Assembly: GCA_965224085.1 (NCBI GenBank)
Contig: CBDCYI010000009.1
Span: forward strand, 1 to 64,000
Direction of reading: 5' to 3'
Origin: Candidatus Marinacidobacterales bacterium
GTDB lineage: Bacteria; Acidobacteriota; Vicinamibacteria; Marinacidobacterales; SMYC01
Length of the DNA stretch: 64,000 nucleotides
Positions 5,313 through 27,846 of this stretch are shown piece by piece (the stretch's first letter is position 1; each line of letters begins with the position of its first letter). Both the position numbers and the translations under genes were made by a program. The notes below the pieces were generated by a model. That model saw only the letters and a list, made by a program, of their open reading frames with translations, was not told the DNA's origin and searched no databases.

Positions 5313-6948
5313 TCAGGCGACGCGTGACAACCGGTAATCGTGATGAAGCCCACCAAGGACCGACCTCGAGGCAACGGCGCGCTGGGCGGGTAATTGATGC
5401 CGGTGCTGGTCCGGTTTCATCGGAAGCTCGATACAGGGGGTGGGAAGGCCTGGCCCGAGCGATGAATGCGGTCTCGCCCGATTGTAGTAGTCACGCCATT
5501 CGGTCAAGAGTCGGCGGAGATGTTCCTCTGACAGCGGTATCAGAAAATCCAAGCACTCCCGGCGTCTGGTGCCGATGAGTCTCTCACAATAGGCATTCGC
5601 CTGCGGTGCTCTGCGCGGCGTCCTCAACGGCCGAACACCCATCCCCCGGACGGAGCGGCGGAGGTCTGCTGAGAACTTGTTATCGCGGTCCACGATGACG
5701 AATCGATAGTCGTGCTCGCACCCAATCGCCTCCAGGAACTGTTGCAGCGTCCACTCCGCGGTCGGATGCGCCGTCACGTTGAAGTGAAGCATCTTGCGGG
5801 TGCCGATTTCCATGATGACGAAGACGTAAAGCACACGAAAGCTGACGGTGACTACGTTGAAAAAATCCGCAGCGACGACCGCTTTTGCGTGATTCCGCAC
5901 GAATGTCGCCCAGCGATGCGATGCATTGCGCCGGTCCGGGCTGCCGTCATCTCGAATGGGTATGTACTTCCGAACGGTGCGCGGCGAGACGCAGACGCCA
6001 AGCTTGACGAGCAGCTCGTTGGCGATCCTCTCTTCGCCCCACGTGATGTTCGCGACCGCCATTTCAGCGATTAGTGTCTCTTCCGGGGATGGTCGAAACC
6101 CCTCGCCTTTAGGCGAAGAGAAGATCGTGGTATTGTGGTCGCGTGCGTCACTACAGGCACGGAGCGCACACGAAAACGGACCTAAAAGCGCACATCGTTT
6201 GGATACCGAAATATCGTAAAAAGGTTTTGATCGGTCCAGTAGCGGTTCGTGTGCGCGATCTGATTCGTCAGATCGCGATGGAACATGAGCTGCACATAAT
6301 CTCGGGTAAGGTTGCACGCGACCACGTCCACGTGTTCGTATCCTACCGACCACACCAGGACCTTGAGTACGATCGTGCAGTGGCTAAAAGGAATAAGCTC
6401 CCGAGTACTCCTTCAGGAGTTTGCTCACCTGAGGAAGAAGTTTTGGGGCCGGCACTTCTGGGCCCGAGGATATCTGGCGGTGAGTTCAGGAAGCATAACG
6501 GACGAGATGGTAAAGGAGTACATAGACTCCCAGGATGGCGAGCCTCTTCACGACGACAGTCAATTTCCAATTGACAGCCCTTGAAGCCACCGCCTTCTAG
6601 GCGGTGGTTGTTCACTTTTTTCAGCTCCTCTGGCAGCGTTGGACGTCCTTTTGGCCTAGACTTCCAACGCCAGAACAGCCGAAACCCTTTCCTGTGCCAC
6701 AGAACGAGCGTATCGGGCTTGACCACGATAAGGGCTTCCTTCCAGTCGAATATCCTCGCGAGAGTCGCCATCGTGACCCGTGTGGCGTTATTCGTGCGCC
6801 GAGGCGCCTGCTTACGCTCGACAAAGAACGTAAGCTGCTTCCGAAGGAAAAGATTCTCTGCGGCGAGGGCGCTGCGCGAGCGGCATAGGTTGCGAGCGAA
6901 CGCGATGGCGTCCAGAACAATAGACCGGATATTCGAAAACAGTCGCAC
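5313..6948 (-). pseudogene. rve/integrase-core transposase (lineage 2) interrupted by IS200
   Basis: Removing 6075-6615 restores ...PTLPEELKK|LIAEMAVAN... in frame; motifs ADFF, DRDNKF, ANAYCERLIG, GGLHHDY. Confidence 0.9.
6075..6615 (+). mobile_element. tnpA: IS200-type element (tnpA only), copy 1; tnpA 6143-6584 is frameshifted by one extra T near 6363
   Basis: HUH motif DHVH and catalytic Tyr (VKEYI); subterminal hairpins; inserted after TTAG, ends in TCAC, no TSD. Confidence 0.92.
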
Positions 6949-11979: not shown

Positions 11980-13008
11980 ATGAAGAAAATCCGCTCTGCC
12001 ATCTATACGCGAAAGAGTGCGGAAGAGGGTCTCGAACAGGATTTCAACTCCCTCGATGCGCAGCGAGAAGCCTGCGCCGCGTATGTCGCGAGCCAGAAAG
12101 CGGAGGGCTGGGTGCTGCTGCCAACCGTCTACGAGGACGCGGGGCTCTCGGGAGGAACCCTGGAGCGCCCGGGCCTGCAGCGCTTGCTCGCCGACATCAA
12201 CGCCGGTCTCGTCGAGCAGATTGTGGTCTACAAGGTCGACCGGCTGACCCGTTCCCTCTCCGACTTTGCAAAGCTCGTCGAGCGGCTCGAGGCGGCCGGC
12301 GCGGTTTTCGTCTCGGTGACTCAGTCCTTCAACACCGCGACCAGCATGGGACGACTGACGCTGCATATGCTGCTGTCCTTCGCACAATTCGAACGCGAGG
12401 TCACGGCCGAGCGGATCCGCGATAAGGTCGCTGCCTCCAAGCGCAAGGGACTATGGATGGGCGGCCGCGTACCGCTCGGCTATGAGAAGGACGAGCGCAC
12501 GCTGCGCATCAACGAGGCTGAGGCCGAAACGGTCCGGACGCTCTATGCGCTGTACCGGAAGCACGGAACCCTCCGGCAGGTGAAGGCCGAGGCGGACCAT
12601 CTGGGACTGCGCACCAAGCAACGCTTCGCGGCGGATGGAACCCGGACAGGCGGGCTGCCGTTCCGTCGCGGACACCTCCACTGCCTGCTGACCAATCCTC
12701 TCTACGCCGGCCGCATCCGGCACCAGAGGCGTGTCTACGAGGGCCAGCATCCATCGATCATTGCTCCGGAGCTCTGGGACGCGGTCCAAACGCAGCTGCG
12801 GGCAGGGGCTGCCAAACCAAGGAGACGCACGACGAAGGGCCGTGCAGCCCGTTCCCCACTGGCAGGCAAGCTCTTCGACGAGACCGGCGACCGGCTGACG
12901 CCGAGCCACACCAAAAAGAAAAACGGGCAACGGCTCCGCTACTACGTCTCCCGGCGCCTCATCCAGCACAGTGGCCAAAAGGACCTCTCCGGCTGGCGAC
13001 TGCCCGCC
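11980..13008 (+). pseudogene. Large serine recombinase truncated at its junction with IS6
   Basis: AIYTRKS, FNSLDAQREAC, YKVDRLTRS, SFAQFERE; frame runs into IS6 sequence at ~13008. Confidence 0.9.
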
Positions 13009-13634
13009 AGGTGTCGTCCGACGCGGAAGAGGTTTTGGACAAGTCCATGAACGGACAAGAATCGCTGGGCTTGACCCGGAGATTTGAACCGTCGCATTTG
13101 CCGTTCACGTTGCCGCGTCGGCTCGTGCGAGACCTCGGCTCTATTGTTTTGGTACTGGTCGGTGCAGTGGACGACGGATGGCATGACCTCGCGGTGAGCG
13201 GCGCTGTAGCTTCTCAGCTTGTCGGTGACGAGCCGCCAGGGTGGCCGGCCCTGCCCCTTCAGCAGCTTACGAAAGAAGCGTTTAGCGGCTCGCCGAGCGC
13301 GTCGAGGCTGGACGAGGATATCGATGACGTCGCCATCTTGGTCCACCGCACGCCAGAGATACTGCCGTTGACCCTGGATGGTTACAAACACCTCGTCCAG
13401 GTGCCACGTATCGCCGAGGCGACCTTGCCGTCGCTTCAGCCCGCGAGCGTATTCTGGACCGAACTTGATGCACCAAAGTCGGATCGCTTCATACGAGACG
13501 GTGATCCCCCGCTGGGCAAGGAGGTCCTCTACATCTCGAAAGCTCAAACAAAAGCGATGGTAGAGCCAAACGGCGTGGCTGATGATCTCCGGTGGAAATC
13601 GATATCCGCGGTAGCTCGGCGACTTGCTGTTCAT
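13008..13634 (-). pseudogene. IS6-family transposase, 3'-truncated
   Basis: YRFPPEIISHAVWLY, WHLDEVF, LWRAVDQDG, VTDKLRSY, NNRAEVSH. Confidence 0.92.
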
Positions 13635-13674
13635 TGGCTCATTCTGTCAGTTAGAGGCCCAACTAATAAGAAAC

Positions 13675-14928
13675 TCAGGGTGTAGCGTTGGCAAGAGGTG
13701 TGAGAGTGACGTCAAAACCGAGCTCCCTTAGGCGTCGTGTCATTCGTATTGTGAGCTGTTCCTTGTCGCGTTGATGGAAGTAATCGGCACCCAGTTCCCG
13801 GTATGGAATCTCATTGTGGAGCATGTAGTAGACGGCGGTGATGATGGAGGCGGCGACGGCGACGACAGCTTTCTTGGGGCCCCGACGAGATTTGAGCCGG
13901 AAGAACTGGGCACGCAGATAGCTGTCGCGCTTGCGGCTTGCCGCCCAAGCGGCTTGGACAAGAGCGGTCTTGAGCCATGGAGCCCCTTTGCGGGTTTTCT
14001 GAGAAAAGCGTTTACCGGCACTCTCATGAAGCCGTGGGCATAGACCGGCCCAAGAGCGAAGGTGTCCGGCCGTTGGGAATGCCGAGACATCGGGTCCGAT
14101 CTCGGCGACGAGAATGGCCGCCGTGGCTTCACTGATGCCCGGGATCGTCACCAGAAGCTCGACGGCCGATCGAAAAGGGCGCAGGCTCTCTGTGATACGG
14201 GATTCGAGCGCGCTCACTGAGGCTTCAAGCTGCTCGATATGATTGAGATGAAAACCCAACAGGAAACGATGATGGTCGGTAACGTAGCCCTCGAGCGCTG
14301 CGCTCAATTCCTGTTCAGTGGCTTTGAGTCGGCTTGAGCCCAGCTCACTCAGCTTGTGAGGGTCGCTTTCTCCCGCAATGATCGCTCGGAGAATCGCCCG
14401 CCCGCTTACTCCCAAAATCGTGCTAATCACGCTCGTCAATTTGATGTTCGCGTCTTCCAACGTCTTTTGAATTCGCTGGGTCTCCCGAGCGATTTCTCGA
14501 ACGAACTGCTTTCGCGTTCGGGTCAGCTCTCGCAGTTCCTGGATCGGCGTTGGCGGAACGAAGCTAGCTCGAATGAGACCATGGGCAAGCAAATCCGCTA
14601 TCCACAAGGCATCACTGATATCGCTCTTACGACCCGGCATGTTCTTGACGTGGGCCGGTTGTGCCAACACCAACTCAAAATGACCTTCGAGCACATGCCA
14701 CACCGGCTTCCAATACACTCCGGTCGCTTCCATCGCTACAATCGTGCAACCGCACTGCCCCAGCCAATCCAACATTTCCAGCAATTCGCTCGTGGCCGTG
14801 CCGAACACACGCGTCTCGCGCACCACCTTCCGCTTCGTCGCTACCCGCACGCAAGCCGTAATCGATTTCTGGTGGACGTCCAATCCGGCGCATCGCTTAT
14901 GAACCACTCTCATCGCAGCCTCCTTCAC
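13675..14928 (-). CDS. IS110-family DEDD recombinase/transposase
   Basis: GLDVH, MEATG, KSDISDA, TIPGI, WAGLCP..HESAGK. Confidence 0.95.
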   Translation of the reverse strand: MKEAAMRVVHKRCAGLDVHQKSITACVRVATKRKVVRETRVFGTATSELLEMLDWLGQCGCTIVAMEATGVYWKPVWHVLEGHFELVLAQPAHVKNMPGRKSDISDALWIADLLAHGLIRASFVPPTPIQELRELTRTRKQFVREIARETQRIQKTLEDANIKLTSVISTILGVSGRAILRAIIAGESDPHKLSELGSSRLKATEQELSAALEGYVTDHHRFLLGFHLNHIEQLEASVSALESRITESLRPFRSAVELLVTIPGISEATAAILVAEIGPDVSAFPTAGHLRSWAGLCPRLHESAGKRFSQKTRKGAPWLKTALVQAAWAASRKRDSYLRAQFFRLKSRRGPKKAVVAVAASIITAVYYMLHNEIPYRELGADYFHQRDKEQLTIRMTRRLRELGFDVTLTPLANATP

Positions 14929-14929
14929 G

Positions 14930-15142
14930 TCGCACCGGCGTGGAGCCCACGAACTTGTAATCTAATAGACGCGCTCAACTATCCCAGCTGGAATAGAAAA
15001 CGCAATTTGGGGTACGCGCAGGACTCCCAGCCAAACTTGACAACGGGCTCAGTCGCACCAACGTTAAGCCGACCTCTGAGCCGGTGCCACCTTCACAGAC
15101 TACCGCGTTTCATTCATTCGGGGTGGCCGTCAGGCCGTGGAA
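14930..15142 (-). ncRNA. Candidate IS110 bridge-RNA region (5' non-coding end)
   Basis: ~215 nt non-coding, conserved in copy 2; contains TTGTCAAGTT, identical to the inferred target half-site. Confidence 0.6.
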
Positions 15143-15644
15143 AACTTGACAGCAATGGCACCGCCCGCGTGGGCGGAGGTCATCGGGGAGTGACCGAAAT
15201 CGTTCGTTCACTCGAAAGTACCTTTGGTCGTCTTCATGTAGGACGTTTTGAGGGTCGAGTCGGTTGTCCATCATCATTATTAACTGGACCGTCTGCGGAG
15301 TCATCTTCGTTTCCTCCGTAAAACTCCGCTGGATGAATTCGAGGTTTGGCCAATTCGAATTCCACTATTCGCCTTCTCCTCAGGCGCGATCTAGGCATTG
15401 AGCGTCTTCTCATTGTCTGCGCGATTAAGTGAAAAAACGTCCCGATAAGCCCCAAAATCGCCCCAAATTGCACGCTAATGGCCTGTTTAGCTCTGTTTCT
15501 GATCGTTTCCAGCCAAGAATCGGAAGCTCCACTCAAGCCTCCCGACTGCGATAGTCGGAAAGATGTTCCCGTCGACGAACATTCGCTGATGAGACGTAAA
15601 GCCTTTTGCGGCAATGAGTAACGGTCGGAGCCGCCTCCGGAGGG

Positions 15645-19330: not shown

Positions 19331-19406
19331 GGTACTTTCGAGTGAACGAACGATTTCGGTCACTCCCCGATGACCTCCGCCCACGCGGGCGGTGCCATTG
19401 CTGTCA

Positions 19407-20704
19407 AGTTTTCCACGGCCTGGCGGTCACCCCGAATAAATGAAACGCGGTAGTCTGTGAAGGTGGCACCGGCTCAGAGGTCGGCTTAACGTTGGTGCGA
19501 CTGAGCCCGTTGTCAAGTTTGGCTGGGAGTCCTGCGCGTACCCCAAATTGCGTTTTCTATTCCAGCTGGGATAGTTGAGCGCGTCTATTAGATTACAAGT
19601 TCGTGGGCTCCACGCCGGTGCGACGTGAAGGAGGCTGCGATGAGAGTGGTTCATAAGCGATGCGCCGGATTGGACGTCCACCAGAAATCGATTACGGCTT
19701 GCGTGCGGGTAGCGACGAAGCGGAGGTGGTGCGCGAGACGCGTGTGTTCGGCACGGCCACGAGCGAATTGCTGGAAATGTTGGATTGGCTGGGGCAGTGC
19801 GGTTGCACGATTGTAGCGATGGAAGCGACCGGAGTGTATTGGAAGCCGGTGTGGCATGTGCTCGAAGGTCATTTTGAGTTGGTGTTGGCACAACCGGCCC
19901 ACGTCAAGAACATGCCGGGGTCGTAAGAGCGATATCAGTGATGCCTTGTGGATAGCGGATTTGCTTGCCCATGGTCTCATTCGAGCTAGCTTCGTTCCGC
20001 CAACGCCGATCCAGGAACTGCGAGAGCTGACCCGAACGCGAAAGCAGTTCGTTCGAGAAATCGCTCGGGAGACCCAGCGAATTCAAAAGACGTTGGAAGA
20101 CGCGAACATCAAATTGACGAGCGTGATTAGCACGATTTTGGGAGTAAGCGGGCGGGCGATTCTCCGAGCGATCATTGCGGGAGAAAGCGACCCTCACAAG
20201 CTGAGTGAGCTGGGCTCGAGCCGACTCAAAGCCACTGAACAGGAATTGAGCGCAGCGCTCGAGGGCTACGTTACCGACCATCATCGTTTCCTGTTGGGTT
20301 TTCATCTCAATCATATCGAGCAGCTTGAAGCCTCAGTGAGCGCGCTCGAATCCCGTATCACAGAGAGCCTGCGCCCTTTTCGATCGGCCATCGAGCTTCT
20401 GGTGACGATCCCGGGCATCAGTGAAGCCACGGCGGCCATTCTCGTCGCCGAGATCGGACCCGATGTCTCGGCATTCCCAACGGCCGGACACCTTCGCTCT
20501 TGGGCCGGTCTATGCCCACGGCTTCATGAGAGTGCCGGTAAACGCTTTTCTCAGAAAACCCGCAAAGGGGCTCCATGGCTCAAGACCGCTCTTGTCCAAG
20601 CCGCTTGGGCGGCAAGCCGCAAGCGCGACAGCTATCTGCGTGCCCAGTTCTTCCGGCTCAAATCTCGTCGGGGCCCCAAGAAAGCTGTCGTTGCCGTCGC
20701 CGCC
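19407..20704 (+). mobile_element. IS110 copy 2, two frameshifts (~19724, ~19920), 3'-truncated at a C-type end
   Basis: Near-identical to the reverse complement of 13850-15146. Confidence 0.92.
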
Positions 20705-20860
20705 TGTGCCTTCTATTGATTCATCCGCGCGCATCGAACTGGATTAGTCTCCAGTCTGCCGGCATCATGCCTGCATGATTTCGTCGTTTGTTCGCGCTCT
20801 CATCGCAGCCCTCAAGGCTCGGCCCGAGCTAGCTCTCGGGAAAGTCGCTCTTCGCGCGTC
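20705..20860 (+). mobile_element. Left end (C-type, TGTGCCTTCTATT) and N-terminal remnant of a lineage-3 integrase
   Basis: MISSFVRALIAALKARPELALGKVALR resembles the N-terminus of this transposase group. Confidence 0.65.
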
Positions 20861-26869: not shown

Positions 26870-27009
26870 AGTTTTCCACGGCCTGACGGCCACCCCGAAT
26901 GAATGAAACGCGGTGGTCTCTGGAGGTGGCACCGGCTCAACACGACGCCTGAGGGAGCTCGGTTTTGACGTCACTGCCCCCAAACGCTACACCCTGAGTT
27001 TCTTATTAG
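26870..27009 (+). mobile_element. Miniature IS110 (both ends retained, interior deleted)
   Basis: AGTTTTCCACGGCC...ACCGGCTCA joined to ACGACGCCT...CCCTGAGTTTCTTATTAG. Confidence 0.85.
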
Positions 27010-27549
27010 TGTCTCTTCCGGGGATGGTCGAAACCCCTCGCCTTTAGGCGAAGAGAAGATCGTGGTATTGTGGTCGCGTGCGTCACTACAGGCACGGAGC
27101 GCACACGAAAACGGACCTAAAAGCGCACATCGTTTGGATACCGAAATATCGTAAAAAGGTTTTGATCGGTCCAGTAGCGGTTCGTGTGCGCGATCTGATT
27201 CGTCAGATCGCGATGGAACATGAGCTGCACATAATCTCGGGTAAGGTTGCACGCGACCACGTCCACGTGTTCGTATCCTACCGACCACACCAGGACCTGA
27301 GTACGATCGTGCAGTGGCTAAAAGGAATAAGCTCCCGAGTACTCCTTCAGGAGTTTGCTCACCTGAGGAAGAAGTTTTGGGGCCGGCACTTCTGGGCCCG
27401 AGGATATCTGGCGGTGAGTTCAGGAAGCATAACGGACGAGATGGTAAAGGAGTACATAGACTCCCAGGATGGCGAGCCTCTTCACGACGACAGTCAATTT
27501 CCAATTGACAGCCCTTGAAGCCACCGCCTTCTAGGCGGTGGTTGTTCAC
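27010..27549 (+). mobile_element. IS200-type element, copy 2 (intact)
   Basis: Identical to 6075-6615 except for one base; inserted after TTAG. Confidence 0.93.
27078..27518 (+). CDS. tnpA: IS200/IS605 Y1 transposase TnpA
   Basis: HIVWIPKYR, DHVH, LKGISSR, FWARGY, KEYI. Confidence 0.95.
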   Translation: MRHYRHGAHTKTDLKAHIVWIPKYRKKVLIGPVAVRVRDLIRQIAMEHELHIISGKVARDHVHVFVSYRPHQDLSTIVQWLKGISSRVLLQEFAHLRKKFWGRHFWARGYLAVSSGSITDEMVKEYIDSQDGEPLHDDSQFPIDSP

Positions 27550-27846
27550 TTGACGTTGAGCGAGCGAACCTATCGCGTCGAGCTGACTTCCTTTGCTCTC
27601 ATCGGACGGCACAGGTTACCTCCTGCCAGACGATGAAAGCGCGGTCTCGTAGCTCCCGATGATGATGCGCTTGCAACAAATGCCGTCCGACGCGAAAGAG
27701 ATTTTGCACGAGTCCATGCACGGTCAAGAATCGTTGCGCCTGCCTCGGCGGTCTGCTCAGGGGTCATCCTATCCTTCACGATATCGCGAGCTTCTCTCGC
27801 ATTTTCATGTCCTCTAGCCCTAGCAAGGCACGGATGGTCGGTCGCG

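Follow-up and report, generated by a model that had tools for sequence, protein, structure and literature searches.

An IS110-family element in the terminal repeat of an IS6-family insertion sequence and its predicted bridge RNA

The window analyzed here is a 64,000-nucleotide (nt) stretch of DNA, positions 1-64000 of contig C9 in a 6.87-Mb genome of 12 contigs. It contains an IS110-family insertion sequence (IS) that interrupts the terminal repeat of an IS6-family IS, and we will use the term "element A" for this IS110-family element. Element A lies on the minus strand at 13663-15146, including both copies of its AG core, with the left core at 15146-15145, the body at 15144..13665 and the right core at 13664-13663. 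Its recombinase gene (13675-14913, minus strand) encodes 412 amino acids with DEDD/RuvC-like and Tnp domains, matched by PF01548 (residues 9-155, E = 4e-28) and PF02371 (residues 252-335, E = 2e-23). This combination of an N-terminal DEDD (RuvC-like) and a C-terminal Tnp domain is that of the IS110 family, and the protein scores 292.8 bits against NF033542 "IS110 family RNA-guided transposase" (cut-off 140). The likeness to the IS621 protein (structure 8wt6) is distant only (E = 1.3e-10). The left end of the element extends for 231 nt upstream of the gene. The evidence presented below makes it highly probable that element A is a bridge-RNA-guided recombinase element that inserts at a motif of the IS6 terminal repeat.

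The adjoining IS6-family transposase gene (12942-13634, minus strand) matches PF13610 and scores 211 bits against NF033587 (cut-off 125). Together with the inner part of the IS6 left repeat (TTGGGCC..), it occupies 12942..13662 on the minus strand. The outer part of the same repeat is located on the other side of element A, at 15145..15222 (minus strand), and consists of GGTA (15222..15219), a 66-nt insert, and CTGTCAAG (15152..15145). The insert (15153-15218, plus strand) lies between nucleotides 4 and 5 of the repeat and is a mini copy of a second IS110-family lineage, lineage B; it is called mini-B here. On the minus strand the order is GGTA, mini-B, CTGTCA-AG, element A, TTGGGCC.. and the IS6 gene. 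The insertion site first looked sub-terminal because mini-B splits the repeat; a site about 77 nt inside IS6 was rejected, the extra sequence being the lineage B mini copy. About 20 IS6 left repeats in the genome carry this 66-nt insert at the same position.

The ends of element A have been fixed from the copies that a BLAST search of the element against the genome returned (about 10 full copies and about 15 mini copies), together with the ends of relatives. In the mini copies, the first ~75 nt of the left end are fused to the final 65-70 nt of the right end. With the flanks of all copies collected, each of the 23 target junctions reads (T/C)GTCA-AG followed by the left end TTTTCCACGG, and the right ends read ..TTCTTATT-AG. 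Searching for left junctions with a loose 13-mer returned mostly noise, and this search was not used. The flank beyond the right AG is mostly TTGA, with TCAAGG and GGTTTC also occurring, and because these flanks vary, AG alone is common to both junctions. The same holds for nine multi-copy relatives, in which AG is again the sole sequence shared by the two junctions. An identical core dinucleotide, as expected of a bridge-RNA system, is therefore present at both junctions here and in the relatives examined. A first-pass annotation of this DNA had placed the element at 13640-15160 with an AGTT core; both the outer limits and the TT of the core have to be given up in favor of the ends and core described above. 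At C4:29375, a full copy is followed in tandem by a mini copy, and the junction between right and left ends, ..TTATT-AG-TTTTCCA, is the sequence expected of a joined right-end/left-end donor.

Further copies are present in the window. The second copy (19407..20705, plus strand) has two frameshifts, is cut at 20705 by another repeat, and sits in a different IS6 left repeat, in which mini-B is present as well (19331-19406; approximate limits 19337-19402); its left-end variants are common to the copies at C4:32480 and C9:508189. A mini copy at 26870..27009 (plus strand; ~75 nt of left end and ~65 nt of right end) lacks guides and gene and sits in an IS6 right repeat (GGTATTGTCA-AG ...). An IS200/IS605-like element (27010-27549) directly follows this mini copy, and the IS6 repeat interior TTGACGTTGAGCG resumes at 27550. 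The sequence GGTATTGTCA-AGTT-GACG, which had been read for this site earlier, is obtained after removal of both inserts; it is not found directly, since the IS200/IS605-like element intervenes. As the mini copies have neither gene nor guides, they must be mobilized in trans.

Two side observations concern the ends of element A. In the IS200/IS605-like family (~540 bp; 27010-27549 and also 6070-6617), 36 of the 37 left ends present in this genome lie directly 3' of TTAG, and four of its copies lie directly after the element A right end ..TTATTAG, which is the source of their TTAG. In addition, element A and its relatives keep GTTTC 7 nt from the right tip (about 13670-13674) and (AT)GAAAC ~33 nt from the left tip (about 15107-15111), an unevenly placed 5-8-nt inverted pair found across the clade.

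The target of element A can be identified from the uninterrupted IS6 copies. IS6 is present as about 30 full copies of ~800 bp, in which an IS6-type DDE transposase lies between two terminal inverted repeats, as is typical of that family. The left repeat reads GGTAyTGTCAA(A/G)TTGAGC and the right repeat GGTATTGTCAAGTTGACGTTGAGCG (reverse complement, read inward). The insertion consensus of element A, GTAyTGTCA-AG-TTGAcg, matches this repeat and places the insertion between its nucleotides 12 and 13, with the left end of element A always facing outward. The genome has 451 TGTCAAG sites, of which 23 directly precede an element A left end, a number judged not to be chance. The IS6 prefix, which lies outside the footprint of the guides described below, is found at 14 of the 23 target junctions (10 with GTA[CTG] and 4 in repeats interrupted by mini-B) and at only 4 of 379 background TGTCAAG sites. 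The earlier proposal that the target is the IS6 terminal repeat is thus borne out. Elements of ~100 bp with IS6-type repeats, resembling miniature inverted-repeat transposable elements, also host element A (C5:718133-718250, C11:683475-683580 and similar ones).

Because TGTCAAG precedes every copy, it could also be taken for the element's own left terminus, with no target specificity involved. We regard this as the least probable of the explanations considered, and scarcely credible. Unbroken TGTCAAGTTGA is read at 47 empty sites in IS6-type repeats; 32 of these lie within 200 bp of an IS6 gene, and others lie in ~100-bp elements bounded by the same IS6-type repeats. The tandem junction ..TTATT-AG-TTTTCC lacks TGTCA, conservation declines gradually further upstream, and the equivalent five nucleotides vary between copies of relatives whose bodies are 99% identical (L017/L019, L001/L002, L006/L010). 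TGTCA is therefore best regarded as target sequence. The importance of the core is illustrated by a natural test among the IS6 left repeats that carry mini-B or full-length B. Those with CAAG are occupied by element A in 4 of 11 cases and those with CAAA or CAAC in 0 of 19 (hypergeometric probability ~0.012, calculated by hand), which means that G is tolerated and A is not.

The non-coding left end has been compared with those of relatives at 45-65% protein identity, which were found at 78 loci in records labeled Planctomycetota, Acidobacteriota, Gemmatimonadota and Proteobacteria. For 57 loci, the 200 nt that precede the start codon were aligned; the others were duplicates, had too short an upstream region or aligned poorly (L050, L052, L054, L056, L066 and L067). 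The fold that RNAalifold predicts from these 57 left ends has an outer helix, followed by a first stem-loop that contains an internal loop and a small inner hairpin, and by a second, long-range helix that encloses the remainder. In element A, this structured core of the predicted bridge RNA corresponds to 14932..15087 (minus strand), with the outer helix formed by 15087..15080 and 14939..14932 and enclosing the target and donor loops. In the consensus fold 94.8% of the alignment cells are paired, and 18 of the 24 pairs show compensatory changes on both sides. None of 500 shuffles reaches any of five fold measures and slid partners pair at 27-51% versus 94.8%, in a test in which the relatives share descent and the structure has been predicted on the same alignment. 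A GGAC..GUCC hairpin directly after the left target guide was considered and rejected, as it shows no covariation and the long-range helix is preferred. An Rfam search of 13500-15400 at E <= 10 gave two chance-level matches and no bridge RNA family. Element A therefore has the long upstream non-coding end with a conserved structured RNA that is expected of a bridge-RNA system.

Two segments of this predicted RNA correspond to the sequences at which element A recombines. In IS621, according to the published reports (PMC11208160, PMC11208158), the left guide pairs with the bottom strand and the right guide with the top strand, both guides take in the core, and the target loop comes first. By these pairing rules, the segments UGUCAAG and UAUUAG of element A are assigned as left target and left donor guides, respectively. 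The left target guide, (U)UGUCAAG (15036..15043, minus strand; alignment columns 105-111), is located on the 3' side of the target loop. Its UGUCAAG (15042..15036) comprises the 7 nt that follow the conserved GAGCCCGU and has the top-strand sequence of the left target flank together with the AG core; in each of the relatives inspected by hand, columns 105-111 likewise correspond to left flank and AG. The left donor guide, UCUAUUAG (14962..14969, minus strand; columns 196-203), comprises the 8 nt that follow GAGCRCG, and its UAUUAG (14967..14962) equals the right end of element A, ..TTATT, plus the AG core. The corresponding guides of the second copy are at 19511-19517 and 19584-19591.

Most of this had been anticipated by the first-pass annotation. 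The sequence TTGTCAAGTT, reported at 15034-15043 (minus) and 19510-19519 (plus), and TATTAG, reported at 19586-19591, are indeed present, the latter being equal to the right end plus core, and both named segments fall in those blocks of the alignment that follow the left flank and the right end, respectively, among the relatives. The consensus fold agrees with the suggestion that the target guide precedes the donor guide, as in IS621. Had the guides been located in a stem, the proposal would have been in difficulty; both segments are unpaired in the consensus fold.

Column-by-column covariation had made use of the guides and was circular for the left guides, for which reason junctions were called from conserved end motifs, independently of the guides. 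At the loci where such calls could be made, the target guide matches at each of its five non-core positions in 28 of 36 loci, with a mean of 4.72 out of 5 compared with 1.51 for shuffled pairs. The donor guide matches at a mean of 5.19 of 6 non-core positions compared with a null of 2.74, and is perfect in 15 of the 36 loci. The observed mean was reached in none of 2000 permutations for either guide, values that overstate the independence of the loci because the relatives share ancestry. In element A itself the target guide matches at 7 of 7 positions. The left target guide therefore varies together with left flank and core, as does the left donor guide with right end and core.

These data also bear on the possibility that the protein reads the IS6 repeat, the matches in the non-coding end being leftovers of past insertions. 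The RNA and its binding to the protein are predictions here, which leaves this explanation a little room, and we consider it very improbable. The matching segments occupy fixed, unpaired positions of a conserved fold and change with the flank across 36 relatives with a wide variety of targets. Furthermore, the family model is named for an RNA-guided transposase, and RNA guidance has been established experimentally for IS621 and ISEc21 (PMC11208160, PMC11187229). Guidance by RNA is thus the preferred explanation.

The two nucleotides that follow the left target guide (columns 112-113; 15035-15034; UU or UC) are the same as the first two nucleotides of the element's own left end. This match is found in 32 of 32 relatives compared with a null of 25, and also in lineage B (CA). 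The 2-nt extension may aid the second (bottom-strand) exchange.

The right-hand guides have been sought by scanning 22-column blocks (columns 52-265) for complementarity to the core and right flank. Only columns 68-97 stand out (z score 3.3-4.0; permutation p <= 0.002), and locus L005 matches at 10 of 10 positions. In element A this block is CUUAACGU (15068..15061), which precedes the left guide on the 5' side of the target loop and includes UUAAC (15063..15067, minus strand). Pairing of UUAAC with the top strand (core G plus right flank) is possible for G-TTGA as well as G-TTGG, with one G-U pair, which fits the conserved right flank TTGR, and UUAAC is the probable right target guide of element A. 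A segment just 5' of the donor-loop hairpin was considered and set aside: in element A, L017 and L035 it matches the start of the left end by identity and not by complementarity, in L012 and L001 it shows no such identity, and it reaches a z score of only 1.7-2.3. The order of guides differs from the IS621 layout, in which the left guide is 5' of the right guide. In element A each of the two left guides occupies the 3' side of its loop, and in the target loop the block of the right guide comes before the left one. A narrow literature search on bridge RNA guide order returned nothing specific, and the layout may have been described before.

Lineage B provides a second IS110-family element on the same repeat. 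Its protein has 462 amino acids and is 33% identical to that of element A, and about 10 full and about 20 mini copies are present (locus L079, at G000:C5:1401300-1403360, minus strand, is an example). Lineage B inserts on the opposite strand of the IS6 repeat, with a left junction ..CAAyTTGAC-AG/CAATGG.. and a right end ..CGAA-AG/TACC, and its core is also AG. The left end of B has UUGACAG and UCGAAAG at RNA positions homologous to the guides of element A, and it carries GGUAC opposite G-TACC, in parallel to the UUAAC of element A. The right target guide block precedes the left guide in lineage B as well.

How specialized element A is for IS6 has to be considered separately from how it finds its target. 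Element A could simply read a short motif (about TTGTCAAGTTGR) of which the IS6 ends happen to be the most abundant carriers, without any specialization. The IS6 prefix is missing at 9 of the 23 target junctions, some of the flanks consist of unique sequence, and the guide footprint stops short of the GGTA prefix. Relative L037, with the same left guide, has a different right flank and a matching different right guide. We nonetheless consider the absence of specialization unlikely, more probable than either of the two preceding alternatives but well below the specialized reading. The proportion of junctions in IS6-type repeats (14 of 23, versus 4 of 379 background sites) argues against it, as does lineage B, since a coincidence in which the guides of a 33%-identical lineage fit the other strand of the same 16-bp repeat is hard to credit. 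The right flank of the C9:508189 junction, which lacks the prefix, is an IS6-type repeat in 3 of 4 other copies. The motif explanation differs from a bridge-RNA-guided element directed at IS6 in evolutionary intent only and not in mechanism. Of the earlier suggestion that element A is programmed against IS6 ends, the identity of the target therefore stands; given the 9 junctions without prefix, the specificity itself is for a ~12-13-nt motif that is abundant at IS6 ends.

Several observations weigh against a bridge-RNA-guided element aimed at IS6, in addition to these 9 junctions and the shared ancestry of the relatives. The left end of element A, folded as a single sequence, is no better than shuffles (z score -0.25), and guide-independent junctions were obtained for only 36 of 57 relatives. 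The donor guide in element A matches at only 6 of 8 positions. UUAAC lacks the CU opposite the core that is seen in most relatives, and its five pairs, one of which is G-U, form only when the register is moved by one; as the CU is missing, the register of this guide is a presumption. For the right donor guide no block in columns 52-265 reached a z score of 3, the start of the left end being too conserved, and column-by-column covariation gave no column for either right guide. A sigma-70 consensus scan of 13600-15300, in the linear form only, gave no promoter-like sites. Contigs from RNA libraries (X18 and X19; two runs of one study) cover 14792-15052 and 15077-15151; these are at most a weak hint of transcription, as RNA libraries can hold DNA and the contigs show neither ends nor strand; the uncovered parts of the left end carry no information. 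As for its spread, at least 0.65 of the words sampled from the stretch occur in 17 runs from 10 studies, with 9 coded organism labels and one labeled metagenome.

Based on these observations, the following mechanism can be proposed. The 5' non-coding end would encode an RNA of ~156 nt in which an outer helix surrounds two stem-loops, each with an internal loop, and the recombinase would bind this RNA after its transcription. In the target loop, the left guide and the UUAAC on the other side, which would pair with G-TTGR of the top strand, could together specify ~12-13 bp, TTGTCA-AG-TTGR. The partner of UAUUAG, in the donor loop, would be the right end and core of element A itself in the joined right-end/left-end form, presumably a circular intermediate. 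Recombination at the common AG would then place element A between nucleotides 12 and 13 of the IS6 terminal inverted repeat. The ~100-bp derivatives with the same repeat would be hit as well, these and IS6 being the commonest carriers of the motif in the genome, and the mini copies would be moved in trans.

Comparison with characterized systems indicates that element A is a clear natural example of a known mechanism and not a new mechanism. In common with IS621 and the IS110 group (Durrant et al. 2024, PMC11208160; Hiraizumi et al. 2024, PMC11208158), element A has a DEDD plus Tnp recombinase and a long 5' non-coding end with a structured RNA, its target loop precedes its donor loop, and its left guides have the top-strand sequence of the left half of target or donor, with the 2-nt common core included. 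It differs from IS621 in having an AG rather than a CT core, in enclosing both loops within one outer helix, in placing its left guides on the 3' rather than the 5' side with the right target guide first, and in that the two nucleotides after the left target guide follow its own first two nucleotides. Bridge RNA structures are described as diverse by Durrant et al. (PMC11208160). In IS1111-type RNAs the segment complementary to the top strand comes first, and the reverse order is found in the IS110-type ISEc21 (PMC11187229); in this respect element A resembles the seekRNAs of the IS1111 group (ISEc11, ISPa11, ISKpn4; Siddiquee et al. 2024, PMC11187229). Unlike that group, it has its non-coding region upstream of the gene and its right end only ~10 nt beyond the stop codon, an arrangement of the IS110 type. 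The long sub-terminal inverted repeats of the IS1111 group were also not seen by eye in element A, which has only the 5-nt GTTTC/GAAAC pair, unevenly placed. Like IS4321/IS5075, element A is an IS110-family element at a fixed position in the terminal repeat of another mobile element. It belongs to another group than IS4321/IS5075, its victim is an IS6-family IS and not a Tn3/Tn21-family transposon, and the match of guide to repeat is read here directly.

The surroundings of element A are rich in other repeats. The IS6 copy that it interrupts is a diverged variant with 82% identity to the common IS6 type over 13012-13651. The second terminal repeat, or right end, of this variant was searched for in the window and not found, for which reason the copy may be truncated or rearranged near 13012. 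A plus-strand open frame of 356 amino acids (11980-13050) overlaps the 3' end of the IS6 gene. The region 3660-32250 is dense with other repeat families, such as a 46-93-nt unit, CCCGTCCTGTGCCAAAACTCGGCC.., in 7 copies. Several 300-nt exact repeats also lie within it, and one repeat family there is responsible for the interruption of the second element A copy at 20705.

What is new here is the AG core, the probable right target guide, the reversed guide order, the guide-less mini copies and the converging second lineage. A narrow literature search for IS110-family elements aimed at IS6 repeats gave nothing specific, and a prior description is possible. A more far-reaching interpretation is that this clade uses a distinct bridge-RNA layout (upstream of the gene, right guide first, one outer helix and a 2-nt extension) and that two 33%-identical lineages are each specialized parasites of the same 16-bp IS6 repeat, on opposite strands; we advance it tentatively, as a proposal that is somewhat more doubtful than probable. 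Here the genome sequence itself shows both left guides and the candidate right target guide, and dozens of sites, filled or empty, are available for checking them. For IS110-type elements, the ends of another IS serve as a landing pad that is safe and present in many copies, in the way that Tn21 ends serve IS4321/IS5075, and two IS110 lineages converge here on one IS6 repeat. If true, the reversed guide order and the donor-matching extension would widen the design rules for AG-core bridge recombinases.

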